Source of the DNA: Holophagales bacterium
Lineage (GTDB): Bacteria > Acidobacteriota > Thermoanaerobaculia > Multivoradales > Multivoraceae
NCBI GenBank assembly: GCA_009845425.1
Contig: VXZQ01000004.1
Coordinates: forward strand, 140,585 to 204,584
Length of the DNA stretch: 64,000 bases
Direction: 5' to 3'
Shown: positions 19,491 to 56,719 of the stretch, piece after piece
How the letters are laid out: the number at the start of each line of letters is the position of its first letter
How positions within the stretch are numbered: position 1 is the first letter of the stretch
The notes under the pieces: model-generated
What the model saw: the letters and a program-made list of their open reading frames with translations, nothing else
What the model was told of the DNA's origin: nothing
The model's database searches: none
Position numbers and translations under genes: made by a program

Positions 19491-19506
19491 ACTTTCGGTC
19501 GCGACG

Positions 19507-20514: not shown

Positions 20515-20536
20515 GTCAGCGAGGGTTCCAGCCGCC

Positions 20537-20986: not shown

Positions 20987-22065
20987 CCCTTCTCCTCCGG
21001 TTCTGTCCCTTCGCCGCTCGCGCAGGCCTTCCAGCGCAGCGATCCGTCCAGCCGTCCCGAGTCGAGCAGCCGGTTGAGCCAGCGCAGGCGAACGAAGCGC
21101 GGGTCGCCGTAGAGCGCCGCATCGAGACCGACGCGGCGATAGTCATCGATCAAGCGCCTCGCCCCGCTGGCCGCGTCCCGGAACTCGAAGTCCGGGAAGG
21201 CCCTGGCGAACTTCTCGAACGAGGCGCGGTAGGTCCGCTGATCGGCGCCGGGCTCGCCTCGCACCTCGATCTCGCAGCCGGGCACGAGATCGGCCGCGAT
21301 CTCCGCGAGTTCGATCACGCGGTGGTTCAGATGGTCGGCGCCGGTGTTGAAGGCCTCGTTGTGAACCAGCGAAAGCGGCGCTTCGAGCACTCGGCCGAAC
21401 GCCGCCGCCACGTCCTCGACGTGGACGACCGGCCGCCACGGCTTGCCGTCGCCGTAGACGACGACCCGCCGGTTGGCGAAGGCCGCGCCGGTCAGGTCGT
21501 TCAGCACCGTGTCGAAACGCATTCGCGGTGACAGGCCGTACACGGTGCCATTGCGAAGGAATGTCGGCGAGAATCCGTCACCTGCCAGCTCCAGGATCGC
21601 CTCCTCGCTCCGAACCTTGGAACGTGCGTACAGGGTCCGCGGGTCGAGCGGCGAGATTTCGTCCACCGTTTCCGTGCTGGACTGGCCGTACATGATGCAG
21701 GACGACGAGAACAGGAAGCGGCGCACCTCGGCCTCGCGCGCCAGTTCGGCCAGGCGTACGGACGAACGGTGGTTGATCTCCTCGGTCCAGTTCTCGTCCA
21801 GGTTGCCGATCGGGTCGTTCGAGAGCGCGGCGAGATGGATCACCGCGTAGAACGCGCGCAGGTCGCCCGGCTCCAGGTCCCGGATGTCCTTGCGGATCGA
21901 CGGAATCGGCACCGTGTCCGCCGTGATCGTGCAGTCGTCGAAGTAGCCCGTATCGAGCCCGACGACGTCGTAGCCGCGCTCCACCAGATACGGCGCCATG
22001 ACCGAGCCGAGATAGCCGCGATGCCCCGTGATTAGGACCGGGCGGCGCACGAAGGCGGTGCTCAT
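20983..22065 (-). CDS. NAD-dependent epimerase/dehydratase (extended SDR).
   Basis: Rossmann motif [29 protein letters not shown] and the catalytic YARSK (YxxxK). Confidence 0.85.
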
Positions 22066-23273: not shown

Positions 23274-23370
23274 CGCGTTGGACCTCAAGGCGCCTGGAGC
23301 GCGGCGCGAGCCGCGCGCTGGCGAGACTACCAACGAGGGCATCCACGGGGCCCTAACATCTCGCTCCGCT

Positions 23371-25857: not shown

Positions 25858-25894
25858 CTTCGTTCGAGGTTTCTTCGAGATTCGTTCCGGATGC

Positions 25895-27334: not shown

Positions 27335-27364
27335 GGTCGCGCAGAAGACTCTAGCGGAACCCGA

Positions 27365-29323: not shown

Positions 29324-29425
29324 CGGACGGCCCGCGAGTAGTACCCTTCCTCGCGGTGCTTCTGCAGCCGGGCCGGTAGGCGAGCCGCCGCATCGTGAGA
29401 GACCATGTACTTCCGCCGGTGAACC

Positions 29426-30883: not shown

Positions 30884-31785
30884 CGGAGGACGAGGCAGGG
30901 CCTCGGCCGTTCACGATCGAGCGCGTCAGCGTCATCATCCCCTGCCTGAACGCCGAGGAGACCCTGGACGCGCAGCTCGAAGCGCTCCGCCGGCAGACCT
31001 GGCGGGGCGAGATCGAGGTGCTGGTCGCGGACAACGGGTCGACCGACGGTTCGGTCGAACTCGCCGCGTCCTGGCGCGACCGGCTGCCCGGCCTGCGCGT
31101 CCTGCAAGCCGCCGAGCGCAAGGGACCGGCGCACGCCAGGAACGTCGCCGCGGCGGCAGCCACCGGCGACGTCCTTCTCTTCTGTGACGCGGACGACGAA
31201 GTCGCCGAAGGCTGGATCGACGGCCTCGTGCCTGAACTGGAGCGCCATGAGGCCGCGGCGAGCCGCCACGAGATCGAGCGTCTGAACGACGAACAGGCGC
31301 GACGGTTGCACGGCGACGCCGCGCAGCAGCACGGCCTGTGCAGCTACACGAACCCGCCCTTCCTCGACCACGCCGGCGGTTGCGGGCTGGGCGTACGACG
31401 CCACGTCTTCGAAGAGCTCGGCGGTTTCGACGAGGAGTACGTTGCGCTGGAGGACACCGATCTGTGCTGGCGTCTTCAACTCGGCGGCTACAGCCTCGTC
31501 TTCGCGCCCGAGGCGATCGTCCACGTGCGGTTCCCGGCGACCCTCGCGGACGCCTTCCGCCAGGCGGCACGCTACGGCCAGTACAACGTGTACATCTACA
31601 CGCGGTACCGCTCGCGCGGCATGCCGCGGCTTCCCGCACTGCCAGGGCTGCTGCGACTCGGCTCGCTGCTGCTGCGAACGCCGCAGCTCCTGTCGAGATT
31701 CGCCCGCGGCCGCTTCGTCTGGCTCGCCGGCTGGCGGCTGGGCCGGCTCCGGGGCTGCCTGCGCTACCGTAGCCTCGCGTTGTAG
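30880..31785 (+). CDS. Family 2 glycosyltransferase.
   Basis: VSVIIPCLNAEETLDAQLEAL...VADNGSTDGS...LFCDADDEV. The GTG at 30880 overlaps the sulfatase-like stop (GTGA). Confidence 0.85.
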   Translation: MTEDEAGPRPFTIERVSVIIPCLNAEETLDAQLEALRRQTWRGEIEVLVADNGSTDGSVELAASWRDRLPGLRVLQAAERKGPAHARNVAAAAATGDVLLFCDADDEVAEGWIDGLVPELERHEAAASRHEIERLNDEQARRLHGDAAQQHGLCSYTNPPFLDHAGGCGLGVRRHVFEELGGFDEEYVALEDTDLCWRLQLGGYSLVFAPEAIVHVRFPATLADAFRQAARYGQYNVYIYTRYRSRGMPRLPALPGLLRLGSLLLRTPQLLSRFARGRFVWLAGWRLGRLRGCLRYRSLAL

Positions 31786-31795
31786 CCGGTAACCC

Positions 31796-33259
31796 GTGGA
31801 ACAGAGCCCGCACCAAGATCCGGCCGCTCCGGTCGCCGGAGCAAAGCAGCGGCTGCTGCATTCGACGTTCAGTGCGTATGTCACCCTGTTCGTCCGGCTG
31901 ATCATCGCCTTCGGCACCCGGTACGTACTGGCCCGTCTGATCCTGCCCGCGGAACTCGGGATCTACGAGCAGGCGCTACGCGTCGTAGTGCTCCTCTCGG
32001 CCGCCCGCGATCTCGGGCTTACCCACCAGTTGATGCGGGACCCGCGCGAGTCCTACGGCACGGTGCTGGCCTGGAGCGCCGGCGTCGGCACACTGCTGTC
32101 ACTGATCCTCGTCGCCGGCGCTGGCCTCTTCTCCTACGAACCCGACCTGCCCCAGGTGCTGCGGGCCATGTCGGTCTGGATCGTGATCGACGCGGTCATC
32201 ATGGTCTACCGGACGTACTTCGAACGCCGGCTTGTGATCCGCGACATCGCCGGCTTCGAAGTGCTTCGCGCACTGCTGTTCGGTGTCCTGGCAGCTCTGC
32301 TGGCGCTCAACGGCGCAGGAGTCTGGTCGTTCGTCGGCGGCGAACTGGCGTCCTCGGCAGCCTTTGCCCTGTTCCTGCTGTGGCGGGCCCGAGGGCGGAT
32401 TCCCCTGACCCTGGACCCGCGGCGAATCCCCGCCCTGCTGCGGGCGAGCCGCTACCTGTTCGTGGTCTGGGTCGCGTTCCAGGTCTTCAACTACGTCGAC
32501 TACTACATCGTCAGGTACTTCTCGTCGAGCGAGGTCGTCGGCTACTACGCCCAGGCCTACTGGCTCGCCTTCCTGGTTCCGCTCACGCTGACCGTCCGTC
32601 CGCTACTGCCCGCCCTCGTCGAGTTCCGGCATGACAAGGCCGAGTTCGCCGAAACGCTACGTCTCGGAACGCTCGTCTTCCTGTCCGGGATCGTCCTCGC
32701 CGCCTACTTCCTGTTCTTCAACATCGAGAAGGTCGTCCTCCTGCTGTTCGGCGAGGCGTGGACCGAGGTCGGTCCGCTGCTGCGCATCCTGTGCCTGGTA
32801 CCGCTCGTCGATGTCTTCACGACCACCGGCGGCGAGGCGCTCAAGGTGCAGAGGCGGGACCGGCTGTGGCTCACGACCGTGGTCCTGAACATGACGGCCC
32901 TGATCGCCCTCGGCCTCCTCTTCACCTACCAGTGGGGACCGATCGGGATGGCCTGGGCGAACTTCGCCCGTCTCGGAAGCCTGCTCATGCTGATCAAGAT
33001 CTTCGGCATCTTCGCCGGACAGAGACGAAAGCTGGTCCTGAGCCTGGCTCAGGTCTATCTCCTGCCGCTGCCCTTCTTCCTCGCCGCTGCGGCTCTGCTG
33101 CCAGCGGACAGTTGGTCGAGGTTCGTTGCCAGCGCAGCGGCGGCCGGGCTCGGCGCAGGTGCGCTTCTGTTTCGCTTCCTGCCGGACTACCGGCGGTTCT
33201 TCCGCCGGGCGGGGGCGGCGCCGGACGCGGGTAACGCGGACATCGGGACGACCTCGTGA
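31796..33259 (+). CDS. Polysaccharide/oligosaccharide flippase (Wzx-like, MOP superfamily).
   Basis: 487 aa and about 12-14 hydrophobic segments. It sits in a glycan cluster between a GT2 and a GT-C-like protein. Confidence 0.7.
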
Positions 33260-34809
33260 CCGATCGCCGGGCCTTGCGGCTCCTGGGAGCGTCGGTGGCA
33301 GCCCTGCCGCTGCTGACCCTGCTGTTCCTCCCGGTCCGCACGATCGACGACGCCTTCATCACGTTCCGCTACGCCCGCCACCTTGCCGACGGCAACGGCC
33401 TGGTGTTCAACGTCGGCGAGCGCGTAGAAGGGGTCACCAGCCTGTCGTGGACCCTGCTGCTGGCGTTCGTCGAAGCGCTGCGTCTGCCGGTCGAGCCGGC
33501 GGCGTTCGCGCTCGGCGTGTCGTTCGCCCTGCTGGCACTACGCGAGGCATACCTGCTGGGCCGCGGCCTCGGCGCCTCACCGGCAGCCTGTCTGGCCGCG
33601 GTCGCCCTGGTGGCGGTCCATGGCCGTTTCTGGCTCGTCGCCGCCAACGGCCTGGAGGGCGGTCTGTTCGCGTTCCTCGTCGTCCTAGTGGCGCGCAAGA
33701 CCGTCGAGGAAGCCGAGACGAGGCTGATCGGCGCCCTCCTGGGACTGCTCTTCATGACCCGGCCGGAAAGCCTGGTCCTCCTCCCGATCGTTGCCGGCTA
33801 TCAGTTGCTGGGAACGTCCGAATCCGCCGAGAGGACGGAAGCGCGTACCCGAGCCGTCACCCTTTCGGTTGCGGCTCTCGCGATCGTCGGGGCCGTCACG
33901 ATCTGGCGGCTCGGCTACTACGGCGCCCTCCTGCCCAACTCGGTGGCCGCAAAGTCCGCGGTCTCGGCCGGAACCGAGACGCTGCTGGCGAATCTGGTGT
34001 CGGGCCTGTCCTACAGCGTCCGCTTCGAGATCGCGCACGCGCCCCTGATCCTCGGCGCCGCAATCGCACTCATCTTGAGGCCCACGAACCGGGCCCTGTG
34101 GTTCTGCTTGCTGGTCGTCGTGTCGGAGTTGCCGGCAGTGTTCGTGAACGGCGGCGACTGGATGCCCCACTACAGGCTCCTCATGGTCTTCGTACCGGTG
34201 CTGGCGGCCCCGCTGGCCCTCTGCCTCTCGAGTGCGTTCGAGGACTGGGACATGCCGGGCCCCGCCAGACGGCGCTCAGCCTGGGTGCTCGCCGTGCTGT
34301 CCGTGAGCGCCGTCTTCATGCTCAGCCGCAGTCCCTGGCAGACCACACCCGGCCCGCGCTTCACCTTCCATCCGATCACGAGCTGCTACCAGTTCATGGC
34401 GACCCGCCTGAAGCCCCACCTTGCGCCCGGCGACGTCGCCGCCGCCGAAGCGATCGGGCTCTTCGGCTGGATCCTCGACGAAACGACGATCCACGATCCT
34501 CTCGGCCTGACCTCCACTCATCACGCTCGCCACGGCGAGTACCACCTGAACTGGGGCAAGACCGACTACGACCATCTCCACCAGGTCCGCCCCGCGGTCC
34601 TCGTGCTCCACGAGGGCTCGGTGGTGACCCCCGGGAAGATCGACCGCGGCACCGACGGCCACTTCGCCCGCGACTACTCCGCCTGGTTCGTGAGCCAGCA
34701 GCCGCCCTGCGCACCGTACCGGCTCATCGTCTACATCGACAACGAGCGCCTGGAGCACCTTCGCCCGGCGCTCGCCGGCCTGGTCATCGAGCCCCTGCCG
34801 GCCGGGTAG
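33256..34809 (+). CDS. Polytopic membrane protein, GT-C-type glycosyltransferase/polymerase-like.
   Basis: An acidic motif lies right after TM1 ([32 protein letters not shown]), followed by many TM segments and a soluble C-terminal domain. The GTGA overlaps the flippase stop. Confidence 0.5.
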
Positions 34810-34815
34810 GACCGC

Positions 34816-35793
34816 TCAGCCGGCCTGCAACCGCCGGCGCAACCAGATCGAGCCGAAGTGGGTGTCGTAGTCCTCCAACTCGACCGGGCGGTAGCCGGGA
34901 ATCGTCCGCTCCAGGAAGGGCTCGTCGAAGTGGCGGATCATCGGCGCGGAGAGCACGACCTCGAACTCTCGATTGAAGCTCAGGAAGGCCTGCAGCACCA
35001 TCGCTTCCGTGCGGTAGAGCGGCCACTTGGCCCGGAAGACGTACTGTTCGGCCGGGTAGGGCGTGTTGTACGGGAAATGGATGTCGTGCACGTGGACCAC
35101 GACGCCCGGCCGCAGCCGCGGCAGCACCTCGAGAAACAGGAACGCCACGTCGCCGCCGAGTTTCAGCACGTGGGTCGAGTCGATGAACAGCACGTCGCCC
35201 GCGTCGAGAGTGTCAAAGAGCCCGAGGTCCGTGGCTTCGACCCTTGAGACGACCGCGTTCACGACCGGCTCCTCCAGTTCGTTCAGCCGCCCGGTCGGGA
35301 ACGGATCGACGCAGGTCATCTCGCACGAACTGCCGTCGCGGCCATTCGCCTTGGCAGCCAGCCACGCGTAGTAGGTCGAGAGACCGGACCCGATCTCGAC
35401 GTATCGCGCCGGCCGCAGATCCCTCACCATGAGGTACGTCGTCAGAGCGTCGATGACCGGGAATCCGGGGCCATACCCCAGTGCCCGGATCTCGCTGTGC
35501 GCTGGCAACGCGTCGAACTCGCCGCCATGTACGTCGATCAACGCCGACAGCAGCGCTGTCATCGCGTCCAGGTCGTAGTCGACTCCGACCAACTCGCTCG
35601 GCCGGTCCCACGACTCTCGGGACTCCGCCACCTCTGACAGCACCGGCAACGGCGAGTAGAAGTCGGCCGTGCGCGCCACGTTCCACCCCAACCGCCGCAG
35701 GGCGGCAAACAGGGCCGCGTGCAACCGGCGGTAGATCGTTCTAAGCACCTTGACCATCGAACGCCGACGATAGCCCGTTCGGTATCTCGCCAA
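34816..35793 (-). CDS. Class I SAM-dependent methyltransferase (polysaccharide-cluster type).
   Basis: YVEIGSGLSTYY is a SAM-binding motif I-like block, and DVLFIDSTH is also present. The start may instead be the internal ATG at 35757. Confidence 0.6.
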   Translation of the reverse strand: MARYRTGYRRRSMVKVLRTIYRRLHAALFAALRRLGWNVARTADFYSPLPVLSEVAESRESWDRPSELVGVDYDLDAMTALLSALIDVHGGEFDALPAHSEIRALGYGPGFPVIDALTTYLMVRDLRPARYVEIGSGLSTYYAWLAAKANGRDGSSCEMTCVDPFPTGRLNELEEPVVNAVVSRVEATDLGLFDTLDAGDVLFIDSTHVLKLGGDVAFLFLEVLPRLRPGVVVHVHDIHFPYNTPYPAEQYVFRAKWPLYRTEAMVLQAFLSFNREFEVVLSAPMIRHFDEPFLERTIPGYRPVELEDYDTHFGSIWLRRRLQAG

Positions 35794-35981
35794 TCGCCAT
35801 CCAGAGCGTCAGCGGTATGGACGGCAGGCGGCCGTTGCGCGCGACCCGGAGGGAAGGCGCGAAAACATCGCTCGATTCTCCGTTTATCTCACCAAAAAAT
35901 CGCACATGCTCCTGTAGTCTCCTCGTTCGGTGACCTGGCATGCCCTATGAATCGCGGTGAGACTCCTCGCAGAGGTGCCCG

Positions 35982-37365
35982 GTGATCGGCCCCGCGGGAG
36001 TCCTCCAGGAACGTCCGAAGACAACAACGCCGTCCCGAAGCCTCGATCAGACGATCGAGGCCGCCGTGCGCAACCTCCTGAGGAGTCGCAAGGAGGATGG
36101 TCACTGGCGCTTTGAGCTTGAGGGCGACACGATCCTCGAGTCGGAATACGTTCTGCTGCTCTGCTTCCTCGGCCGCGCAGACGATCCGAGAATCGCCGCC
36201 TGCTGCCGGCGCCTGCGCAGGCAACAGCTAGCAACAGGCGGCTGGGCGACCTACCCAGGAGGACGGGTCGACCCAAGCATGTCCGTCAAGGCCTACCTGT
36301 GCCTGAAGCTCGCCGGCAACGACCCGCGTTCGCCGCATATGGCCGCGGCACGCCGCGCGATCCTCGGCGCGGGAGGGCTGCGTGCCTGCAACTCGTACAC
36401 GAAGTTGTACTTGGCGATCTTCGGCCTGTGGCGCTGGCGGCATGCGCCGGCGGTGCCCCCGGAGATGATCCTCCTGCCGCGGTGGTTCTGCTTCAACATC
36501 TACGACATGTCTTCCTGGTTCAAGCTCAACTGCAGGAACTCGAACGGTTCGAGATCGAGGAGGCCGGGGAGATCCGACTCCAGCCTTGCCTGTCGCCGGT
36601 CTGGGACACGACACTGACGGTGAACGCGTTGCTCGATGCCGGTGTGGATGACGGGAAAGCCCCGATTCAGGAAGCTCTGGAGTGGCTGCTGGACCGGGAG
36701 ATCTCGGTCGCGGGCGATTGGCGCCAGAACGCGATGATCGATCCGAGCACGCCGGACATCACCTCTCGAGGCATCCGTGCCCTGCTTGCCGCGGGACTCG
36801 ATCCGCGGGAGGCGCCGGTCAGGAGGGCCGCCGGGTACCTGCTGCGGGAGCAGGAGGAGGACGGAAGCTGGCCCGGACGCTGGGGGGCCAATCACATCTA
36901 CGGGACCGGGCTTTCGCTCCGGGCCTTGGGTGAGCTCGCCGCCGCGGCGACACGCGACCGCTCCGACGCCCTGGCGCGGGCGTTGAGGCGTGGCCGGAGC
37001 TGGCTGCTCCGGGTCCAGAACGGAGACGGCGGGTGGGGCGAGTCGCTCCGTTCCTACGAGGATCCGACCGCCACGGGGGCGGGGACAGCACCGCGTCCCA
37101 GACGGCCTGGGCAATGCTGGGCCTGAGCGCGACCGCCGAAGCGCGGCCGGAACCGCGCGAAGCCGGTCCGGCTCGCTTGGCGTTGGACCGCGTCGCCGCC
37201 TTCCTTCAGGAGCGTCAACGGGAGGACGGTTCCTGGTACGACCATTGGTGGACCGGGGTCGGGTTTCCGGGAGTCTTCTATCTCCGATACCACGGCTACG
37301 CCCAGTACTTTCCGCTCGCGGCGCTCGCTGAGTATCGCCGTCTTCGATCAGGGAGCCGGAGATGA
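35982..37365 (+). pseudogene. shc: Squalene-hopene cyclase remnant: three reading frames, two large internal deletions, and the DxDD catalytic motif absent.
   Basis: - Frame 0 (35982 to about 36510) reads DGHWRFELEGDTILESEYVLLLCFLG...NSYTKLYLAIFG...PPEMILLPRWFCFNIYDMSSW.
- Frame 2 (about 36520 to 37080) reads QPCLSPVWDTTLTVNALLDAG...WLLDREISVAGDW...DGSWPGRWGANHIYGTG...QNGDGGWGES.
- Frame 1 (about 37080 to 37365) reads STASQTAWAMLGL...EDGSWYDHWWTGVGFPGVFYLRYHGYAQYFPLAALAEY.
- The total is about 1.38 kb, against roughly 1.9-2 kb for intact shc genes. Confidence 0.85.
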
Positions 37366-39371
37366 CCATCAGGTTCGCCGAGGAGATTCTCCTGCTCATC
37401 CTCGACGAAGAGCACGGTGATCTGCCGAAGTCCTACTCGGAGCACCTTCTGGACATCGTCGTTGCCGGCGCCGTGTTGATGGACCTGGCGCTGGAAGGAC
37501 GGATCGACACCGACCTCGAGAAACTCGTCCTGGTGGACTCCACGCCTCTTGAGGACGAGCTTCTCGATCCGACCCTGGCGGATGTAGCGACCGGCCCGGG
37601 CGATCGCAACGCGGACTACTGGATCGCGCGTACGGCGGAGCGGGGCAAGGAGATCCGTGAACGCGCGCTTGCCCGCCTGGTCGAGAACGGAATCCTGGAA
37701 ACCGATGCCGGCGGCATGTTCTTTTCGTCCGCCGTCTCCCGTTCCAGGCGCTATCCGACCCGTGACGGGCGCCAGATGGAGGAAGTGCGCCTGCGAATCA
37801 TGCGAGTGCTGTTCAGCGACGAGATACCCGATCCGCGCGATGTCGTGCTCATCTGCCTGAGCGACGCCAGCGGTGTCCTGCGTCGCCTGCTCACGCCGCA
37901 GGAGAGGACCCGGCTGCGGGAACGAATCGAGCAGATCCGGAAGCTTGACCTGATCGGCCGGTTCCTGCTCCCGGCGATTCGCCAGAACCAGCTCGCCGCC
38001 CCGGCGCCGACGGCAGCCCGGCCGCCGAGCGAGATTCCCGAAGTGAAGGGCCTCCCGTTCCTCGGCAGCGCCCTCAGCATGACCGGAGATCTGAGCGTCT
38101 TCTTCGCCCGGCAGTACAGGGAACTGGGCCCCGTCTTTCGCGTGCGCGCCCTGAACCGGCGCCTCCTCGTTCTCGCCGGTCCGGAAGCCGTTCAGTTTCT
38201 TCAACGCCAGGGCAAGGCCCACTTGCGAACCGGCAACGAGTGGTTGCGCTTCAGTTGGGAGATGGGGGCCTCCAAGACGATCATCGCCCAGGAGGGCCCT
38301 CCACACGTCCGCATGCGCAAGACGATGGCCCCGGGCCTTTCGCCCCAGTGCCTCCACGAGCGCATGCCCGACTTCATGCGCATCACCCGAACGGAAATCG
38401 CCGGCTGGCTCCACGGCGGTCCCGTTGCGGCCCGCTCCGCGCTTCAGCGCATGATCACTCGCCAGGCCGGCGCACTGCTGGCCAACCTCGACATGGTCGA
38501 CGGCTCCGACGACCTGGACCGCCTTCTAGGGACGATCCTGGACGTGGAGGTGGCGCGACGACGCCCAAGGTGGTGGCTGAAGCTCCCGCGGGTGTCTCGC
38601 GCTCGAAAGTCCTATCGGGCGCTCTTCGAGGAGATCATGGCAGTGCACGAGCGGCGCAAGCCGTCTGGCGGCCCATCGAACGTCGTGGACGATCTGCTCG
38701 ATCTTCATCGAAGAGACCCTCGGCTGCTCCCCGAAGAGGACCTGCCGGGCGTCGTCGGATCCATCCTCATCGCGGCGCTCCACACGGCAGCGTACACGGT
38801 GGTGTTCGCGCTCTACGAGGCGCTGAAACGCCCGCGGTTCCTGAACGCGATGAGGGCCGAAGCGGACGCCCTGTTCGACAGCGGAGCCGCAGCCGCGCCT
38901 CCACTGTCACGACTTGACGTCACGAACCGCTTCGCGATGGAGACCATGCGGGTGTACTCGATCACGCCCGCGGTGCTGCGTCGTGTAACGAACTCGTTCG
39001 TGTTTGCCGGCCACACGATCCCGGCCGGCGCAGACATCGTGATCGCCTACGGGGCAGCGCACCATCTGCCGGAGCACTTCCCCGATCCGCGGCGTTTCGA
39101 CATCGACCGGTACACGCCGGAGCGGGCGGAGCATCGGGCAGCCGGCGTGTACGTTCCGTTCAGCGCGGGAGCACACAGTTGCCTGGGGAAGGGCCTCGCC
39201 CAGATTCAGATCGCGCTGACCCTTGCGACGATCTTCCATGAGGTCGACCTGGAGATGAGGCCCCCGGGCTACAGGCTGAAGGTCTCCTACGGTCTGTCGC
39301 CCAGGCCGGCCGATTCCTTCAGGTTCGTCGCGCGGCGCAGAAGAGAGAGAGACGCCGCCCTCACCGCCTGA
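37362..39371 (+). CDS. Fusion protein: an N-terminal GPP34/GOLPH3-family domain plus a C-terminal cytochrome P450.
   Basis: - The ORF is a single 669-codon reading frame.
- The N-terminal roughly 205 aa read FAEEILLLILDEEHGDL...VAGAVLMDLALEGRI, which is GPP34-like.
- The P450 part has the ExxR motif (ETMR) and the heme loop FSAGAHSCLGKGLA, with the Cys codon at 39180-39182.
- The ATG overlaps the stop of the shc remnant (ATGA). Confidence 0.8.
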   Translation: MTIRFAEEILLLILDEEHGDLPKSYSEHLLDIVVAGAVLMDLALEGRIDTDLEKLVLVDSTPLEDELLDPTLADVATGPGDRNADYWIARTAERGKEIRERALARLVENGILETDAGGMFFSSAVSRSRRYPTRDGRQMEEVRLRIMRVLFSDEIPDPRDVVLICLSDASGVLRRLLTPQERTRLRERIEQIRKLDLIGRFLLPAIRQNQLAAPAPTAARPPSEIPEVKGLPFLGSALSMTGDLSVFFARQYRELGPVFRVRALNRRLLVLAGPEAVQFLQRQGKAHLRTGNEWLRFSWEMGASKTIIAQEGPPHVRMRKTMAPGLSPQCLHERMPDFMRITRTEIAGWLHGGPVAARSALQRMITRQAGALLANLDMVDGSDDLDRLLGTILDVEVARRRPRWWLKLPRVSRARKSYRALFEEIMAVHERRKPSGGPSNVVDDLLDLHRRDPRLLPEEDLPGVVGSILIAALHTAAYTVVFALYEALKRPRFLNAMRAEADALFDSGAAAAPPLSRLDVTNRFAMETMRVYSITPAVLRRVTNSFVFAGHTIPAGADIVIAYGAAHHLPEHFPDPRRFDIDRYTPERAEHRAAGVYVPFSAGAHSCLGKGLAQIQIALTLATIFHEVDLEMRPPGYRLKVSYGLSPRPADSFRFVARRRRERDAALTA

Positions 39372-39384
39372 GGAGGAGACTCCA

Positions 39385-40569
39385 GTGCCCGGTAAAGACA
39401 AGGTCCTCCCGCACTCGAGCACGATGGCCCCTCCGGGCACATGGCTGCGCCTCCTCTGGGAGAACGGCGGCGCCCCGCCGGCCTACTGGGGCAAGGTGGC
39501 GCGGATCCTCATTCCGACGACGCTGGCTGCTCCTCTACGGATCTTCGAACGACTGCGCTGGGGCGGCGCGGTCGCCCGCGTGGAGATCGACAAACCGCCC
39601 GTCTTCGTGCTCGGCGTTGCCCGCAGCGGCACGACTCATCTGCTCAATCTGATGTCGCAGGATCCCCAGTACGCCTGGATCTCGACCTTTCACGCCGCCG
39701 TGCCGACCTTCTTCCTCACCGGCCGTGGCCGCTTGAAGCGCCTCATGGCCGGACTCGCGCCGGCGACCCGGCCGATGGACAACATGAAGGTGTCCATGGA
39801 CATGCCGGTCGAGGAGGACCTGGCCGTCGCCAATTCGAGTCCTTTCTCTTCCCTCCATGCGCTCTCGTTCCCCCAGCGGGGAGAGTGGTACTTCAACAGG
39901 TACTGCTTCATGCGAGGCCTTTCGGCCAGGGAACTGAAGCAGTGGGAGCGCGTCTACATGGAGGTGCTGCGCAAGGCGACGCTGGACGCCGGCGGGCGGC
40001 GGCTGGTGCTCAAGAGTCCGGCCAACACGGGCCGGATACCTCATCTGCTGCGGCTCTTTCCGGACGCGCGGTTCATCCACATCGTTCGAAATCCGTACGT
40101 GGTCTACGAGTCCCTGGTGCACATGTTCCGTTCGGTCATTCCGATGCACCAGCTTCATTCGATCACCGAGAGAGCTCTGGACGATCTTGCTCTCTTCCTT
40201 CTCCGGGAAACGCTACAGCAGTACTTGAAGGACCGTGCATCCATCCCGAAGGGACAGCTTGCGGAGCTGCGTTTCGAAGATCTGGAGCGGAATCCGCTGT
40301 CGGAGCTCGAGGCCGTCTACGCAACGCTGGACCTGCCGGGCTGGGAGGCGGCGCGGGTCGGGATCGAGAGCTACCTGGATGGACTTGCCGGCTATCAAAA
40401 GAACCGGTACGCCATCGATCCGCGCACGATCGAACGCGTCCAGCGGGAGTGCCGGTTCGCGCTGGACACATGGGAGTACCTGCCGCCCGACCGTCCGTCG
40501 GCCGCGGTGTCCGGAACCTCTACCGGCGCTGTAGCCGCAAGCCGACGACGATCGTGCGGCCCGGCGTGA
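39385..40569 (+). CDS. PAPS-dependent sulfotransferase family protein.
   Basis: A 5'-PSB-like loop (VLGVARSGTTHLLNLM), plus RLVLKSPANTGR and a 3'-PB-like block (IHIVRNPYVVYES). The GTG at 39385 is preceded by GGAGGAG. Confidence 0.75.
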   Translation: MPGKDKVLPHSSTMAPPGTWLRLLWENGGAPPAYWGKVARILIPTTLAAPLRIFERLRWGGAVARVEIDKPPVFVLGVARSGTTHLLNLMSQDPQYAWISTFHAAVPTFFLTGRGRLKRLMAGLAPATRPMDNMKVSMDMPVEEDLAVANSSPFSSLHALSFPQRGEWYFNRYCFMRGLSARELKQWERVYMEVLRKATLDAGGRRLVLKSPANTGRIPHLLRLFPDARFIHIVRNPYVVYESLVHMFRSVIPMHQLHSITERALDDLALFLLRETLQQYLKDRASIPKGQLAELRFEDLERNPLSELEAVYATLDLPGWEAARVGIESYLDGLAGYQKNRYAIDPRTIERVQRECRFALDTWEYLPPDRPSAAVSGTSTGAVAASRRRSCGPA

Positions 40570-42415
40570 CGAAGCCGGGGACCTCGAAGTAGTCCTCGTC
40601 GAGGAGGTTCTCGATCCGTACGAAGGGTCTGAGCCACGACAGGCTGTAGCTCAGGTGGAGGTCGACCTTGGTGTAGTCGTCCATGACCGCCCCGTCCGAA
40701 TCGGTCCGGTCGGAAACGAAGGCGACCATGGCGGCCGCCGTGAAGCGGTCCGTAGGCTGTAACTGCGCGACTGCCGTCGTGCGGTTCTTCGGCCGCCGGG
40801 CCAGGGGATTGCCCGTGGCCTCGTCTTCCGTCCGGTTGTACGTGTGCGAGAACTCGAGGCTGGTCGAGATGTCCGGCCGGTAGCGCAGGGTGAACTCCGC
40901 GCCGCTCGAACTCGCCCGGGCAACGTTGCCGAAGGTGAAGCTCGTCAGCTCGAACTCGATCAGTTGATCGAAGTCGATGTCGAACCAGGTCAGATCGAGC
41001 GTCACGCCCGAATCGCCCAGCCGCTGCTGCACCCCGATGTCGAAGCCTTCGGTGGTCTCGGGCAGCAGGTTCGGATCGCCCGAGAACGGGAAGTAGAGCT
41101 CGTTGAAGTTGGGTGCCCGGAACGCCGTGCCGTAGCTGCCGTGGACGCGGCCGCGGCCATCGCTCCAGCCGCCTGAGACGGTGACCCGATGACTTGTCTC
41201 GGACCCGAACGCCGAGTGCTCGTCGCCTCGCAGCGCGGCGGTCACGTGAACATCGTCCGTAATCGACCACTGGTCCTGCACGAACCACGAGTCCAGGTCG
41301 GCCTCCTCGTCAAACGTGCCGACACTCGTCCCCCGCCGGTTCTCCGTCCCGAGACCCAGGTTCAGCACATTGTTCGTGCCCAGGGTGATGTCGGACTGAA
41401 GGTCGATCTGGCGGATCTCGGAACGGATCTCGTAGTTGTTCCAGATCGTGTCGGGATCGGTCCCGAGCAGGGTCGCGTCGGTCTGGCCAAGGCGCACCGT
41501 CTGTCGCCAGAAGGAGCTCAGGTCCTTCTCCACCGTCAGGGAGACGGTGTCCTCGTCCTGGGCGGCCATCGCGTTCAGATCCTCGAGGCCGAATCCGTCC
41601 ACCGCGGTGTCGCCGCGGTAGGAACGAGCCCGCAGGTCGATCCGGCCGTCACCCGCGAAAGCGGCGCCGAGGCGGCTGCTCAAGGTCTGGTTCTCGTACG
41701 GATCGTCTTCGACCGCACCGCCCTCGATCGCGCGGTGGGACACGCCGTCGGTGCTCAGGTCGACCGCTGAAACGCTGACGTCCCAACGGTCGGTCGCGCC
41801 CAGGAGGCCCAGCTCGAACCGGCGGTGGTCGTGGGTGCCGGTCTCGCCGGCGCCGCTCAGCCGCCATCCCCTGGTGCCGCGGCCGGTCGTGATACTGACG
41901 ACCCCGGTCATCGCCTCCGAACCGTATGTCGCCTGCGGGCCGCGAAGAACCTCAATGCGCTCGATGTTGGCCGCCAGCAGGTGCGCGAAGTCGACCGTGC
42001 CGCCGGTGACCGAGTTGACCCGCACGCCGTCGACGAGGACCAGGGCCTGCGCTCCGGAGCCGCCGCGCACCCGGACCGTGGCGATCTTGCCGGGACCTCC
42101 GGCGTGAGTCACTTCCGTGCCGGGAACCGTGCGGAGCAGGTCGAGCACGGCCACCGGATTGCGCCGTTCGATCTCTTCGCCGTCGATCACCGTGACCGCG
42201 CTGCCGACCTCCGACGCCGGCACCTCGTAGCGGTTGGCGCTGACGACGATCTCCTCCGCGACGGTCTCTGGCTCGGCGCCAGCTTCCTCGTCCTGGCTGC
42301 CGGCTACCGGCGCCACCAGCAGGACGGTCGCCGCGGCGTGCAGCCACGGCAGGTGCGGGCGGCGTCGGGCGCCGCCCCGGGGACGTGGTACGTCGAGACT
42401 TCTCTTGTCGTTCAT
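40520..42415 (-). CDS. btuB: TonB-dependent outer-membrane receptor. It is a likely cobalamin/corrinoid receptor because a B12 riboswitch lies upstream.
   Basis: 631 aa with a plug domain (EEIVVSANRYE...VTVIDGEEIERRN...DLLRTVPG...VRVRGG...VLVDGVRVN) and a beta-barrel with alternating aromatic strands. The cobalamin riboswitch is in its 5' leader. Confidence 0.85.
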   Translation of the reverse strand: MNDKRSLDVPRPRGGARRRPHLPWLHAAATVLLVAPVAGSQDEEAGAEPETVAEEIVVSANRYEVPASEVGSAVTVIDGEEIERRNPVAVLDLLRTVPGTEVTHAGGPGKIATVRVRGGSGAQALVLVDGVRVNSVTGGTVDFAHLLAANIERIEVLRGPQATYGSEAMTGVVSITTGRGTRGWRLSGAGETGTHDHRRFELGLLGATDRWDVSVSAVDLSTDGVSHRAIEGGAVEDDPYENQTLSSRLGAAFAGDGRIDLRARSYRGDTAVDGFGLEDLNAMAAQDEDTVSLTVEKDLSSFWRQTVRLGQTDATLLGTDPDTIWNNYEIRSEIRQIDLQSDITLGTNNVLNLGLGTENRRGTSVGTFDEEADLDSWFVQDQWSITDDVHVTAALRGDEHSAFGSETSHRVTVSGGWSDGRGRVHGSYGTAFRAPNFNELYFPFSGDPNLLPETTEGFDIGVQQRLGDSGVTLDLTWFDIDFDQLIEFELTSFTFGNVARASSSGAEFTLRYRPDISTSLEFSHTYNRTEDEATGNPLARRPKNRTTAVAQLQPTDRFTAAAMVAFVSDRTDSDGAVMDDYTKVDLHLSYSLSWLRPFVRIENLLDEDYFEVPGFVTPGRTIVVGLRLQRR

Positions 42416-42429
42416 TCGGGCCTTCCTCC

Positions 42430-42632
42430 CCCTCGGGATTCCTCTCCGGGCGACCCTTCCGGGGCCGGCGGAGTTGTGTGCCGCGGCAGACAGCCAGGTC
42501 TCCTGGCTTACCTTCGTCCTACTGGCCGGCCCTTCCCATCCCGCTGGCGGGACAGTGGTTAACGCCGGCTTTCGTCCGGATCACAGTCGCGGGGCGGTGG
42601 GAGAGTCTCACTCCCTTCCCTTGAACTGCCTG
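42430..42632 (-). promoter_or_regulatory. Cobalamin (B12) riboswitch in the leader of the TonB-dependent receptor.
   Basis: The minus strand reads ...AAGGGAAGGGAGTGAGACTCTCCCACCGCCCCGCGACTGTGATCCGG...GTAAGCCAGGAGACCTGGCTG.... It contains the conserved GGGAA...GTGA.A...CCCGC.ACTGT core and a B12 box (AGCCAGGAGACCTGGC; plus strand 42493-42508). GGAGGAAGG then precedes the ATG at 42415. The ends are approximate. Confidence 0.85.
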
Positions 42633-42775
42633 CGTTCGATGTGTGCTCAGACTCTTGCTTCGGTGATCCTCGTCACGTTGAAGAATCGGGCTGCGAAGGG
42701 GCACCATAGCAGTCTCGCGAGGCGGCCTACAATCACGCGATGCGGAACGCGATAGGTGAGCAACTCTCTCTGCTC

Positions 42776-45700
42776 ATGGACGAGCCCGACGCCGCGTTCC
42801 GCGTCCACGCCTCGCACCGCCTGGAGACGCTGGCAGAGTGGCTCGCCGACGAGATGCGGCGGAATCCCGCCAAGCCACTCGAGCCGGAACGGATCGTCGT
42901 GCCGGACGCCCTGCTCGGCCAGTGGCTGCGGCTGCAACTCGCTACTCGCCTCGGCGTCGCAGCGCACCTGCGGATCGAGCAGCCGGCGCAGTTCGCCTGG
43001 GCGGCGATGCGCGAAGTTCTCCCAGAACTCTCCCAGGAGTCGGTGTTTGGTCCTTCCTACCTGCGTTGGAGGATCTTCGACCGCCTCGGGAACTGGACCG
43101 GAGATGACGAGATCGCCCGCTACCTGACCGACGGCGACGCGCGCAAGCGGTTCGAACTGGCCGACCGGCTTGCCGTCGCCTACGACCGTTGCCGCATCTA
43201 CCGGCCGGACAGCATTCGCGGCTGGCAACAGGGCGCATTCGACTCCTGGCACGCACGCCTTTGGGCCGATCTCGCGGCAGGCGAGGCCCAGCCCCGGCAC
43301 TGGGTCGATGCCATCGACCGCTACCGGGACGCCCTGGCACGGCGCGCGCCGGAGAGTCCCCAGGGAACTCCCCGACACAGGGTGAGCTTCTTCCACGTCG
43401 CCTTGATGTCACCCACCTACGTAGAGATGCTGAAGCTCGCCGCCGGCGCGATGGACGTCGATCTCTACTTGCTCAGTCCTTCGTTCAAGTTCTGGTATGA
43501 CGCCCCCAGACGCGACGACCGCGGCTACTACGAGGAACACGACGACCTGCTCGGCGCCTGGGGTCGGCCGGCGCGCGACCTGCAAACGCTGCTCGCGAGC
43601 GGTCCGGAAACTCCAACCGTCCTGAACCGCCAGCCAGCCGAAGACGCGCCCCTTCCCGCCACCTGTCTGGCCGCCCTGCAGCGCGACATCCTGGACGCCG
43701 CGGCCGCCAGCGAGCCGCCCGAACGGGAACCGCAACGCCGCGACGACTCGATCCAGATCCACGTGTGCCACTCTGCGACCCGCGAAGTCGAAGTCCTGCA
43801 CGACCGGTTGCTCGGAATCTTCGACACTCACCCGGACGTCCAGCCCGCGGACGTGCTGATCCTGACGCCTGACCTCGACACCTACGCACCGCTGGTCGAG
43901 GCTGTCTTCGGCGCAACCGGACCGATCCCTTTCAGCATCGGCAGGCACCGACTGAGGGAGGGCGCGGCGCTCACCGCATTCCTCGACCTGCTAGAGCTGC
44001 CGGGCTCCCGCTACGCGGCGAGCGACGTGCTGGTACCCCTGCTCGCTGTGTCAGTGCGTGCCAGGTTCGGGTTGGCCGACGCCGACCTGGCAGCGATTCG
44101 GGATGCGGTCGCACGGGCCCGGATTCACTGGGGTATCGACGAAGACCACCGAACCGAACTCGGCGTGCCCGCTTCCGCGAGCCACAACTGGAGGCACGGC
44201 CTGAGCCGGCTCATTCTCGGCTATGCGATGGACGAGGGCGACGTGCTGATCGACGACAAGACGCCCTGCGCCCTCGACCGACGCGGGTTTCGCAGGAGTG
44301 CCCACGACTACGAACTCTTGGGGCGCTTTTGCCGCTACTGCGAGCTGGCGTTCGTACTCGACGGATGGATGGAAACCAAGCACACTGCGAGCCAGTGGAC
44401 TGAGCGGCTACGGAGCGAGGTCCTCGACGCGTTCTTCGTCCGCGACAAACGCGCTGGCGCCGAAGGTGCCCGCGAGGTCGACACCGTGGCGCGCCTGATC
44501 GACGCCTTCGAGGAGCAGTGCCAGCGTGCCGAAGCCACCGAGCCGATCGCATTCCCGGTGCTCCGAGACGTGCTGAACGGGCTCGCCGCGGAGGCCGTTC
44601 GGTCCGCGCCGCGCCTCGCGGATGCGGTCACGGTCGCCGGGCTCGCTTCCGGCCAAGTCCTCCCGGCAAAGGTGATCTGCGCCGTCGGCCTGAATGACGG
44701 CGTCTTCCCCAGCAGACCGCGCCTCGCCGCCCTCGACTTCCAAGCCGACCTGTTCGACGGCCCGGCTCGCCAGCCCGGCGACCGCGACCGCCGCGACGAG
44801 GACCGCTTCGCTTTCCTCGAGGCGCTCCTTGGGGCAAGGCGCTGCCTCGTGCTGACCTACACTGGCCGGGATCTCCAGGAAGACAAGCCGATCCCGCCGT
44901 CCGTGGTCGTAAGTGAGCTGGTCCAACGCCTAGCGGAACGCTTCCCGGCAATCAAAGTGGACGACTGGATCCGGCTTCACCCGCTACAGCCATTCAGCCG
45001 CCGCTACTTCCAGGACGATGACATCGACCCGAGCAATGCCTCGGCACTATTCAGCTACTCGCAGCCCATGGCCGCCGCGGCAACGACTCTCTCCTCGCGA
45101 CGCGAGCGGCCAGACCGCTTCCAGGGCGAGGTGGCCGAGAGCAGCCGTCGTAACGGCACCGAGGAACTCGAGCTCGAGGACTTCGTCCGGTTCGCCTTCA
45201 GCCCGTCGAAGGAGTTCGTCCGCAACCGGTTGGATCTGGTCCTCGACACGCGCGAAGACCGCATCGAAGACGACGAAGCTCTCGACCTGAATGCACTGGA
45301 GGTCTGGCGCCTGAAGACCGAGCTAGCGGACCTAGGTGATCTGGAAGACGAGAGGACCCACGACCTGGCCGCGGCTAGGGGCCTGCTGCCGCCCGCGAAC
45401 CTTGGCCGCGTGCAGCACCGCGAATCAGCGGCCCAGGTGCGGAGTCTTCTGCAAGCGATGCAGAGATTCCGGGAACACGAAGAAGCGCCACTCCAGGAAG
45501 TCGACATCGTCGTCCGGGGCGTCCGTCTGGTGGGCGGAGTCGCGCGCTTCCACGATGCGAAGAACGAGCTTCTCTGGTGGCGTATCGGCCGGATCCGCCC
45601 CAAAGATCGACTCGCCGTCTGGCTACGGCTGCTGGCCGCCATCTGCCACCGGAACCGTTCAGCCGCCGCGTACCTGTTCGGCGGCACTACCGAAGTCGAG

Positions 45701-55696: not shown

Positions 55697-55697
55697 C

Positions 55698-56627
55698 TCA
55701 GCGCGAGGCGCCGCCGGCCGCCGGCCGGCCAGCGTCCAGATCGGCGTGCAGGGCGCCGACGAGCGCGGCCACTTCGGGGCGGGTCAGTTTCGACCCCGGG
55801 CCCTGCTCCTCGACTCGGGCAAGGGTGGCCCAGGCGAGGCGAACAGGAAGCGCGGTGAACCCCAGGTAGCCGCGAGGCGCGCCGGCTTGCTGCAGGTGGG
55901 CCACGTACTCTCCGGCCACTTCAAGGTCCGCGCGGGCCAGCTCGAACGCGAGCGTCCGGTCGCGGCCGTCCCGAATGAACGACCTGCCCTCATCCTCGTC
56001 GGTCGCCGCATCCTTGAGGATGTTCACGAGCTGCAACGCCTCGCCGAACGCCGCCGCGCGCCGCCGGAGCGCTTCCGCCACCTGTTCCAGCGGCGCGCCA
56101 AGCAGGAACAGCTCGGTCAGCATCTCGCCGACGATTCCGGCAACGACGTAGCAGTAGTCCCGAAGCTCGGGGATGCCCTTGAGGCGGAGCTCGCCGTCCC
56201 GGTCGGCGCGCCTGACGATGTGCGCCATGCCCACGCAGGTGCGGCGAACGTGATGACCGACCGCCGACCGGGCCGGCGGATCGAGAGCCCGATACGCCGA
56301 AAGCACCTCATCCGTCGCCTCGAGCAATTCCAGGTAGCCCTCGTGAGGCGAGGGTGGCTCGGCGAGCCAGGACGCGACCAGATCTCCCGTCGCGGCGCCT
56401 GCCGTGTCGTCCGTGTCGTCCAGCAGGTCCGCGAACCGGAACAGCGCCTCGACCCGCTGCTCCCGGCTCCAGACCGCCGCGTCCTCTAGCGTGTCGGCGA
56501 TCCGCAGCAACAGGTAGCCCAGGGTCACCTGATCCCGCGTCGCGCCCTCGAGTTGGGGAATCGAAAGCGCGAACGTTCTGCTCGTCTTGACCAGAAGATC
56601 TTCGAGGTCTGCCATCAGCGAGCGCAC
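55698..56627 (-). CDS. Squalene synthase / phytoene synthase family (head-to-head prenyl diphosphate synthase).
   Basis: SRTFALSIPQL, a first Asp-rich motif RIADTLED, YCYVVAGIVGEML, and a second motif NILKDAATDEDEGRSF. Confidence 0.8.
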   Translation of the reverse strand: MRSLMADLEDLLVKTSRTFALSIPQLEGATRDQVTLGYLLLRIADTLEDAAVWSREQRVEALFRFADLLDDTDDTAGAATGDLVASWLAEPPSPHEGYLELLEATDEVLSAYRALDPPARSAVGHHVRRTCVGMAHIVRRADRDGELRLKGIPELRDYCYVVAGIVGEMLTELFLLGAPLEQVAEALRRRAAAFGEALQLVNILKDAATDEDEGRSFIRDGRDRTLAFELARADLEVAGEYVAHLQQAGAPRGYLGFTALPVRLAWATLARVEEQGPGSKLTRPEVAALVGALHADLDAGRPAAGGASR

Positions 56628-56719
56628 GAGTCTACCGGTGCCGGGAGCGAGGTGCCCTGCCGGTTGTGCGTGGTATCGTGCCGCCTGTTCCTGCCAGCGG
56701 AGCCACGCCCGAGCGCCTC

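Follow-up and report, generated by a model that had tools for sequence, protein, structure and literature searches.

We propose that the locus at positions 35982-40569 (forward strand) of the window, the whole 64,000-nt stretch of DNA that was analyzed, is a lipid-tailoring operon of three genes, belonging to sponge-associated, Holophagales-like Acidobacteriota and present here in a decayed copy, and that the intact operon oxidizes and sulfates a hopanoid, a model that we hold with moderate confidence. The unit consists of a squalene-hopene cyclase (shc) remnant, a gene fusing a GPP34 domain to a cytochrome P450, and a sulfotransferase (ST) gene. An earlier note on this DNA had suggested triterpenoid oxidation and sulfation. 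The idea gains from the coupling of the genes, from intact shc genes found in relatives in three gene orders and from the CYP51-like character of the P450, and it loses ground outside the acidobacterial clade, where most P450-ST pairs have no cyclase.

The start codon of the P450 (ATG, 37362-37364) shares 4 nt (ATGA) with the stop codon of the shc remnant (TGA, 37363-37365). A Shine-Dalgarno-like AGGGAG, read from the sequence, lies at 37350..37355 (+), 6 nt 5' of this ATG, and a further GGAG directly abuts the start codon. The P450 stop codon (39369-39371) is separated from the ST start codon (GTG at 39385) by a 13-nt spacer, in which a GGAGGAG ribosome-binding site (39372..39378, +) is placed 6 nt 5' of the GTG. 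Together with the conservation of the 4-nt overlap in relatives, these features bear out the translational coupling of the three genes claimed in the earlier note. The only noncoding gap upstream is the spacer between a divergent Methyltransf_24 gene and shc (35794..35981), where the promoter of the unit probably lies. A motif scan returned no sigma-70 promoters, a consensus that says little for Acidobacteriota, and 3 terminator-like sites versus 2.5 expected by chance.

The shc pseudogene (35982..37365, +) is broken into three frames (35982-36617, 36299-37126, and 37033-37365), and its fragments align only piecewise to Pfam SQHop_cyclase_N/C and to NCBIfam TIGR01507, covering positions 16-176, 446-559, and 554-637 of the 640 of the TIGR01507 profile. 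They score 149, 160, and 84 bits, short of the equivalog cutoff of 431 for full-length membership. The intact orthologues of loci L052, L008, and L012 score 547 to 604 bits, above this cutoff, and the shc that relatives carry intact at this locus (604 bits) is bona fide. Alignment to intact orthologues located the lesions. At 36514..36518 (+), 346 bp are missing and the frame is shifted; the intact form, present in runs X13, X14, and X24, has 341 extra letters at this junction. At 36727..36728 (+), an in-frame deletion of 258 bp has taken away the catalytic DxDDTA motif (DCDDTA in relatives); L002 and L004 read YYPDCDDTAEAL at this point, which is absent from the window, and intact strains of other runs have 259 letters between both sides of 36727|36728. 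Finally, a 1-nt deletion in a G-run (37075..37079, +) causes a second frameshift, and intact strains of other runs carry an additional G behind 37074. In four sponge-metagenome samples, the Logan contigs assembled per run span all of these junctions, with 0 differences and at the depth of the flanks. The decay of the cyclase noted earlier is therefore confirmed as two deletions and a 1-nt frameshift, and an assembly artefact was rejected, since four independent per-run assemblies agree. The decay is recent: in the shc codons that remain, the changes specific to the window amount to 23.5 nonsynonymous versus 27.5 synonymous. A long-dead pseudogene was rejected, as substitutions in the retained codons are still mostly of the selected type.

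Relatives with a 98% identical P450 have, in the same neighborhood, the order shc (634-661 aa)-ATGA-P450-ST. An 86% relative carries shc-P450-RND (L004) and, at a second locus of the same genome, P450-ST-shc (L008); further orders are P450/ST-shc-P450-ST-RND (L009) and P450-shc-ST (L012). The association of shc, GPP34-P450, and ST thus recurs in three gene orders within one acidobacterial clade, and the P450s of all shc-linked loci form a single clade in the tree. The 4-nt overlap of shc with the adjacent gene is kept in L001, L004, L008, L009, and L094. Synteny with intact shc, to which the earlier note had pointed, was therefore found, and the gene overlaps argue for a shared pathway. A relative also has a housekeeping locus, shc-hpnH-OEP-RND (L095). 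As for the window strain, a second gene resembling shc is located on contigs whose depths in four samples are 64/32/20/113, compared with 72/32.5/22/136 for the window contig. This tracking of depth fits the suggestion that the P450 and ST depend on another cyclase copy.

The GPP34-P450 fusion (37362..39371, +; 669 aa) is intact (Pfam GPP34, 1.3e-38; p450, 2e-48). Its GPP34 domain (residues 6-205; 37377-37976, +) scores 133.5 bits against PF05719, with a gathering cutoff of 29.1, and retrieves Vps74 and GOLPH3 in phmmer. The P450 domain (residues 229-634; 38046-39263, +) scores 165.8 bits against PF00067 and has the haem-thiolate loop FxxGxHxCxG with heme Cys607 (39180-39182, +), the ExxR motif, and the I-helix Thr; across 53 family sequences, residues F600, G603, H605, C607, E527, R530, and T475 show little or no variation. 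The AF2 model of the fusion has a mean pLDDT of 84.6. The best PDB match of the P450 domain by sequence, over its full length (E 6e-35), is Methylococcus CYP51 (the M. capsulatus CYP51-ferredoxin, PDB 6mcw/7snm). The two proteins have similar C-terminal halves and share the I-helix His-Thr signature (AALHTAA in the window, aligned with AGHHTSS), but they are only 24% identical, below the ≥40% rule for the CYP51 family, and the CYP51 B'-helix/B'-C loop signature (Y..F...P.FG..V.YD) is not conserved in the window (ewlrfswemgasktiiaq versus ayrimtpifgrgvvfda). Furthermore, the fusion partner of the window P450 is GPP34, in place of the ferredoxin or membrane anchor of CYP51s. The I-helix His-Thr is present in every member of the shc-linked clade, and most other clades have Asp/Glu-Thr. 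Foldseek with the fusion model ranked CYP184, CYP97, CYP51, and BM3 nearly equal, so the fold alone does not identify the substrate class. CYP51 substrates are cyclised triterpenoids; judged by sequence, the P450 domain thus has its closest relatives of solved structure among enzymes acting on cyclic triterpenoids.

The PAPS-type ST (39385..40569, +; 394 aa; Sulfotransfer_3, Stf1/Stf9-like; Pfam 2.8e-36, 126 bits) is also intact. It belongs to its family by the invariant 5'-PSB-like GxARSGTTH and 3'-PB-like VRNPY...S motifs, with G77, R80, G82, T83, H85, R235, P237, Y238, and S243 as invariant residues. The AF2 model has a mean pLDDT of 89, with the tail (372-394) below 50. Stf9 (2z6v) and Stf1 (2zq5) are the best matches by sequence and by Foldseek; they have the same Sulfotransfer_3 core and PAPS-binding motifs, but are 17-20% identical to the window ST and lack its N-terminal three-helix segment (residues 17-65). 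The enzyme is also near lipid-acting PKS ST domains. At 40513..40516 (+), ~63 nt of relatives are missing (window 40512/40517 versus L001 13151/13219; 67 letters lie between both sides in other strains). This loss removes the ST stop codon and spacer, so that the ORF overlaps the convergent TonB-receptor gene by 50 nt. The final ~18 aa are thus a read-through tail specific to the window, and the change is confined to the disordered C terminus.

We found three independent shc inactivations: in the window, in L010, and in L094, where an IS21 insertion is responsible. L010 is a 99% relative (Holophagales MAG bin SB0665_bin_19), a different strain with deletions different from those of the window. 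Compared with close relatives, the P450 has an omega of 0.07-0.10, and omega is 0.13-0.17 for the ST. In the three shc-less lineages (window, L010, and L094), branch-specific nonsynonymous:synonymous changes in the P450 were 2:11, 2:8, and 5:28. The P450 and ST have stayed under purifying selection after the loss of shc. That the cyclase was destroyed while its two neighbors were kept under selection suggests a lipid-tailoring role for the family to which the fusion belongs. An equally possible reading of the same retention is that the product of the adjacent cyclase was never required by the pair.

The window protein is an ordinary representative of this family, GPP34_L, with GPP34 followed by P450 in one polypeptide of a sponge-associated bacterium, and the sequencing runs that contain the window are sponge metagenomes. 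GPP34_L (GPP34 plus cytochrome P450) was published as sponge-symbiont specific (Microbiome 2025; PMC11706023); it is carried by 85% of sponge Acidobacteriota and expressed in Aplysina metatranscriptomes, and PI4P binding and phagocytosis evasion were proposed as its role. That paper examined flanking genes for the short form, GPP34_S, only, and the terms sulfotransferase, cyclase, and hopanoid are absent from it. The published proteins and ours have the same two-domain architecture, similar length, and the same sponge ecology; our analysis differs in finding a lipid-tailoring operon context and a PI4P pocket of which half is not conserved in a provisional alignment. We likewise found the GPP34-P450 family to be nearly restricted to sponge symbionts, of many phyla. 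Of 84 loci sampled in other phyla, about 75 lack a cyclase in the 8 kb around the GPP34-P450; therefore, a hopanoid is not necessarily the substrate across the family. In 25 of 84 loci, across taxa, P450 and ST genes are neighbors in the same direction, and seen from the ST side, two of three sampled distant homologues adjoin a GPP34-P450. The cyclase association therefore holds within the acidobacterial clade and fails elsewhere, where most P450-ST pairs are without a cyclase within 8 kb. Each P450 clade has a single type of conjugating partner: a sulfotransferase, an Acyl_transf_3 enzyme, or an EcKL kinase together with MFS. Such partners would follow a hydroxylate-then-conjugate logic.

For the intact form of the locus, we infer the substrate, the order of hydroxylation and then sulfation, the tethering by GPP34, and the feeding cyclase as follows. 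Within the cytoplasmic membrane, squalene-hopene cyclase would make a C30 hopanoid with five rings, which the GPP34-P450 is predicted to hydroxylate; the CYP51-like P450, otherwise soluble, would be tethered peripherally to the membrane or to lipid by its GPP34 domain. The ST, of Stf type, would then place a sulfate from PAPS onto the new hydroxyl as an ester, and in some relatives the neighboring RND pump might export the product. The window strain would have recently lost its dedicated cyclase and kept the P450 and ST intact, each with its own ribosome-binding site; most likely, the two enzymes act on the product of the second (housekeeping) cyclase of the same genome. As in hopanoid loci, where shc lies with hpnH, hpnG, hpnP, hpnR, and the RND exporter gene hpnN, shc here shares its operon with tailoring enzymes; relatives also have an RND pump. 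In contrast, known hopanoid tailoring consists of radical-SAM side-chain extension and methylation, and we know of no P450 hydroxylase or sulfotransferase for hopanoids. Our literature searches on hopanoid plus sulfotransferase and on hopanoids of sponge Acidobacteria found nothing relevant.

The P450 and ST might instead form a phase-I/II/efflux cassette for an exogenous polycyclic lipid, chiefly sponge sterols, with shc as a lineage-specific add-on. We consider this unlikely, albeit in keeping with the near confinement of the family to sponge symbionts of many phyla (PMC11706023), with the CYP51-like P450, with partners of steroid-conjugating types (sulfotransferase, O-acyltransferase, and ecdysteroid-kinase-like) accompanied by MFS or RND pumps, and with the survival of the P450-ST pair through three independent shc losses. 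Nevertheless, shc is translationally coupled in three arrangements in this clade, sterol uptake or degradation genes were not found near the cassette, and the convergent TonB receptor is missing from L004 and L008.

A pair from Mycobacterium tuberculosis offers another model. Cyp128 and Stf3 are encoded in one operon there, and hydroxylation precedes sulfation (sulfomenaquinone S881). A similar pair here would act on a linear polyprenyl lipid (menaquinone, for instance, or squalene) by omega-hydroxylation and sulfation, and the cyclase would have only a precursor pool in common with it. The likeness lies in a bacterial P450 gene beside a PAPS sulfotransferase gene of the same broad Stf type, the ST being nearest to the mycobacterial Stf family, and in an isoprenoid membrane lipid as the substrate, predicted in our case; moreover, most members of the GPP34-P450 family have no cyclase neighbor, and published work links M. 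tuberculosis stf3 to a sulfated menaquinone and CYP128A1 to menaquinone-9. However, the mycobacterial pair has no GPP34 domain, no cyclase, a linear substrate, and a different P450 family. Among P450s of solved structure, those closest to ours are CYP51s rather than fatty-acid or polyprenyl omega-hydroxylases, and the gene overlaps with shc favor a shared pathway, making this explanation quite improbable. The published idea, in which the protein is secreted, binds PI4P, and as an effector keeps the phagosomes of sponge cells from maturing, with unrelated neighboring genes, draws on the sponge-symbiont-restricted distribution and the expression in Aplysina metatranscriptomes (PMC11706023) and on a genuine GPP34 fold. 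The PI4P pocket of Vps74 comprises W88, R97, K178, and R181 (PMC2806290). In the fusion, W88 is replaced by Ser26 and R97 by the family-invariant Ala35, K178 aligns with K96 at a variable position, and R181 aligns with the conserved Arg99; the window protein thus lacks the full pocket, in residue equivalences that are provisional because the pairwise phmmer alignment is weak (E 4e-4). Further difficulties for an effector are that the fusion has no signal peptide ahead of the GPP34 fold with which it begins, that a P450 requires haem and a reductant, and that its conserved partners depend on cytoplasmic PAPS or, in the case of shc, are located in the inner membrane, with overlapping genes. We regard it as very unlikely for the window protein. 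Lastly, it is extremely improbable that decay affects the entire locus, with the P450 and ST as leftovers without function. Four deletions do fall within 4.6 kb, one of them at the ST 3' end, and the lower GC content judged by eye in the earlier note proved to be a real but small dip, since the block (66.3%, versus 68.5% in the remaining window) ranks among the lowest 7% of sliding windows of its size; GC3 is 0.81-0.82, versus 0.86-0.92 in adjacent genes. Yet both ORFs are full-length with all invariant catalytic motifs, omega is 0.07-0.17 with mostly synonymous terminal-branch changes, and the altered ST tail touches only the disordered C terminus.

Returning to the hopanoid model, hopanoid hydroxylation and sulfation would, if confirmed, be new to the lipid chemistry of bacteria and of relevance to sponge natural products and triterpenoid biomarkers. 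Few genomic features mark sponge symbiosis as clearly as GPP34_L, and its gene neighborhoods suggest lipid tailoring by oxidation, conjugation, and export, a concrete biochemical alternative to the effector hypothesis. More speculatively, and with considerable doubt, GPP34_L cassettes may constitute a system shared horizontally across the phyla of sponge symbionts that hydroxylates a polycyclic triterpenoid (own hopanoids or host sterols), caps it with sulfate, acyl, or phosphate, and exports it. If so, anionic or esterified sterol-like surface lipids, not a secreted PI4P-binding protein, would mediate sponge recognition or escape from phagocytosis, and sulfated hopanoids would be a new class of bacterial lipids and a possible source of the sulfated triterpenoids reported from sponges. 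The three cyclase losses with retention of the P450-ST pair provide a natural experiment on the need of the pair for that cyclase.

Among the window genes scanned, we found neither a ferredoxin or reductase partner nor PAPS-synthesis genes. The window does contain a squalene/phytoene-synthase-family gene (55698..56627, −; Pfam SQS_PSY, 6.4e-30), which is a possible source of squalene.

The block at 35982-40569 comprises three genes, all in the same direction (forward strand): a squalene-hopene cyclase (shc) remnant at 35982-37365, a GPP34-P450 fusion at 37362-39371 and a sulfotransferase (ST) with a Sulfotransfer_3 match at 39385-40569. The shc remnant is readable only in three frames, at 35982-36617 (SQHop_cyclase_N positions 1-155), 36299-37126 (SQHop_cyclase_C positions 130-243) and 37033-37365 (SQHop_cyclase_C positions 239-319). 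The 669-aa fusion is uninterrupted, with GPP34/GOLPH3 at residues 6-205 and cytochrome P450 at residues 229-634. The junctions bore out the translational coupling proposed in the earlier note: the P450 ATG (37362), with AGGGAG 6 nt before it, overlaps the TGA of the remnant (37363-37365), and GGAGGAG (39372-39378) comes directly after the P450 stop (39369-39371) and precedes the GTG of the ST (39385). The lower GC content that the note had judged by eye is mild, yet real (66.3% versus 68.5% in the rest of the window, within the lowest 7% of equal-sized windows).

This locus is a decayed copy of a conserved shc/GPP34-P450/ST operon of sponge Acidobacteriota. At least 880 proteins are homologous to the fusion, and each of them has both domains. 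Copies with a 98%-identical P450 lie in surroundings that match those of the window, in the order flippase, 517-aa membrane protein, Methyltransf_24, shc-P450-ST, TonB receptor and recC; their shc is intact, 634-661 aa long, with a 4-nt overlap into the P450 gene. In an 86%-identical relative the order is shc-ATGA-P450 and then an RND pump, and its 2.9-Mb contig also bears P450-ST-shc, a further locus in which ST and shc overlap by 4 nt. Two other relatives' loci read P450/ST-shc-P450-ST-RND (L009) and P450-shc-ST (L012). The intact cyclases score 547-604 bits and pass the NCBI hopene-cyclase equivalog cutoff of 431, and the P450s of all these shc-linked loci form one acidobacterial clade in our tree. 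The P450-ST pair is thus found beside an intact shc in relatives, as the earlier note had proposed to check, and since several gene orders occur in one clade, the association has been kept through several rearrangements, good evidence that the genes share a pathway. At L009:10001-13177, the GPP34-P450 and ST are joined in one 1058-aa ORF, which may be a sequencing error; the contig is a 1x-coverage long-read one, and its shc is also split.

Alignment of the window against intact orthologues mapped three lesions in shc: 346 bp are absent at 36514-36518, which shifts the frame; 258 bp are absent in frame at 36727|36728, which takes out the catalytic acid motif YYPDCDDTAEAL; and a G-run near 37075-37079 is 1 nt short. 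The source of the window is a sponge symbiont, and in per-run contigs of four sponge-metagenome samples (X1-X4), every lesion junction was covered with zero differences and at flank-equal depth. The lesions are real, and the cyclase is decayed as had been claimed. A 97%-identical strain with none of the three lesions occurs in three 2025 runs from two organisms. In the 459 shc codons that remain, changes specific to the window amount to 23.5 nonsynonymous to 27.5 synonymous, against 16:32 and 15:20 in intact relatives; as 23.5:27.5 is far from the neutral expectation, the death of this shc was recent. In all four sample assemblies, the 33-mer at 36578-36610 forms a separate unitig at ∼1.4-1.7x the depth of the flanking contig and is therefore common to another sequence of the sample (a co-occurring strain or other shc copy).

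Two further strains with the window synteny have inactivated the same shc, each differently. Relative to the locus L052, the remnant in L010 (Holophagales bin SB0665_bin_19; 7115-7996) has lost ∼297 bp and all of its 3' half (∼1037 bp), and it still contains the segment deleted from the window shc. On a 3.08-Mb contig (L094:4337-8443), an IS21-family element (IstA rve plus IstB) splits shc, a third independent inactivation. All three shc-dead lineages retain a full-length P450 and a full-length ST. In pairwise comparisons of the window, L010 and intact strains, a set without L094, omega was 0.07-0.10 in the P450 and 0.13-0.17 in the ST. On the terminal branches of the three shc-dead lineages, nonsynonymous:synonymous changes in the P450 were 2:11, 2:8 and 5:28, and those in the ST were 6.8:10.2, 3:9 and 8:19. 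Together, these results argue that the pair is useful without this shc copy.

The P450-ST pair in the window probably now depends on another cyclase. Aligning the contigs of the four samples to the paralogous shc L012:7362-8864 recovered a second shc-like gene, carried by contigs of 4.9 kb (23 kb in X2) and 3.2 kb. With 64/32/20/113 and 66/34/20/123 in the four samples, the depths of these contigs track the 72/32.5/22/136 of the window contig; depth covariance across samples is the basis of binning. The housekeeping locus of the relative L095 reads shc-hpnH-OEP-RND. The second gene is a candidate for, and probably is, the housekeeping shc of the window's genome, and it is a plausible supplier for the pair.

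In sequence searches, the best solved match of the P450 domain was Methylococcus CYP51 (E 6e-35, full length), followed by Naegleria, Acanthamoeba and human CYP51, with CYP184A1 and CYP170A1 ranking lower. CYP51s are sterol 14-alpha-demethylases; a true CYP51 was ruled out here, as the two are just 24% identical and do not have the B'-helix signature in common. The shc-linked P450 clade has the CYP51-type His-Thr in the I-helix, and most other clades of the family have Asp/Glu-Thr. With a confident model of the fusion (pLDDT 84.6), Foldseek did not discriminate among E-class P450s. The ST keeps both PAPS-binding motifs. Its nearest relatives, in sequence and fold alike, are the mycobacterial Stf9 and Stf1; the ST domains of CurM and olefin synthase, which act on lipids, come next, and sulfotransferases for peptides and heparan lie further away. 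Functionally, the closest precedent is the Cyp128/Stf3 pair for sulfomenaquinone in mycobacteria. Relatives' ST ends at 380 aa; in the window, a fourth deletion (∼63 nt) took the ancestral stop codon, and the ST ORF therefore overlaps the convergent TonB-receptor ORF by 50 nt (40520-40569), its new 18-residue tail being predicted disordered.

Homologues of the GPP34 domain include Vps74 and GOLPH3, in which four residues bind PtdIns4P (PMC2806290). In a phmmer alignment, two of the four are replaced (Ser26 and the family-invariant Ala35) and a third position is variable; an Arg-rich patch (R99, R127, R129, R130, R145 and R148) is conserved. A signal peptide is absent from the GPP34-P450 sequence, and the GPP34 domain would anchor the P450 at the cytoplasmic membrane face, the site of shc and its product. 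This fusion family has been described as GPP34_L, with 656 proteins from sponge symbionts only, present in 85% of sponge Acidobacteriota, expressed in Aplysina metatranscriptomes and proposed to be secreted PI4P-binding effectors (PMC11706023). That study makes no mention of a sulfotransferase, cyclase or hopanoid and analyzed flanking genes for the short form only.

A family scan with one genome per species gave 549 GPP34-P450 loci in Acidobacteriota, Gemmatimonadota, Latescibacterota, Binatia, Dehalococcoidia, Alpha- and Gammaproteobacteria, Bacteroidota and others, many with bin names that indicate sponge studies. Host taxonomy is out of step with the P450 tree, and this implies transfer between phyla. 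When neighboring ORFs of 84 loci were clustered, the partners were an ST of this family (25/84), an Acyl_transf_3 O-acyltransferase (19), an ecdysteroid-kinase-like phosphotransferase (13), an MFS pump (13), an RND pump (9) and shc (8). Partner type tracks the P450 phylogeny and the I-helix motif: across loci L014-L089, GLDTTAS goes with Acyl_transf_3 and G[IM]DTSAS with the ecdysteroid-kinase-like gene and MFS pump. Two of three sampled distant ST homologues also adjoin a GPP34-P450. These neighborhoods suggest a common logic in which the P450 would make a hydroxyl and a transferase would cap it, often with a pump present.

Cyclase linkage lies mostly within the acidobacterial clade, apart from three non-overlapping neighbors in Alphaproteobacteria/Arenicellales (L038, L067 and L072). 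P450-ST pairs lacking a cyclase, which the earlier note took as counting against a triterpenoid substrate, thus do occur, which weakens the note's reading in part, and this confinement keeps alive the alternatives that the P450-ST pair acts on a host sterol or on a polyprenyl lipid. Against them stands the association maintained within the acidobacterial clade. Overall, the triterpenoid oxidation/sulfation proposal has partial support. From gene content and homology, the most likely product of the operon is a hopanoid-type triterpenoid that has been hydroxylated and sulfated. The cassette would be of the P450-plus-sulfotransferase lipid-tailoring type, with a fusion protein that had already been catalogued at its core, and this reading offers a biochemical alternative, open to testing, for a gene family that is a hallmark of sponge symbiosis. 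Literature searches on hopanoids with sulfotransferases and on sponge Acidobacteria hopanoids returned no description of such a module.

Compared with L001, the relative with the 98% P450, window 28652-44921 has mosaic identity, ∼95.5% in 28652-31786 and 36725-40512 and only 84-88% in 31996-36518 and 40517-44921, a pattern suggestive of inter-strain recombination around the cassette. L001 and its fellow relative L002 (3046-3945) carry hicB, plus hicA in L002, between the GT2 and flippase genes, where the window has only ∼210 bp (31787-31995). At 54494-59452, an MpaB/Lcp-like oxygenase gene and a squalene/phytoene-synthase-family gene converge, and OEP and HlyD efflux components come next; L009 also has an MpaB-like gene near its cassette. 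Upstream, a sugar/polysaccharide block (18207-34809) encodes an NTP-transferase/HAD fusion, epimerase, C-methyltransferase, sulfatase, GT2, flippase and a 517-aa membrane glycosyltransferase-like protein, and it is conserved from the sulfatase onward in the closest relatives (L001 and L002).
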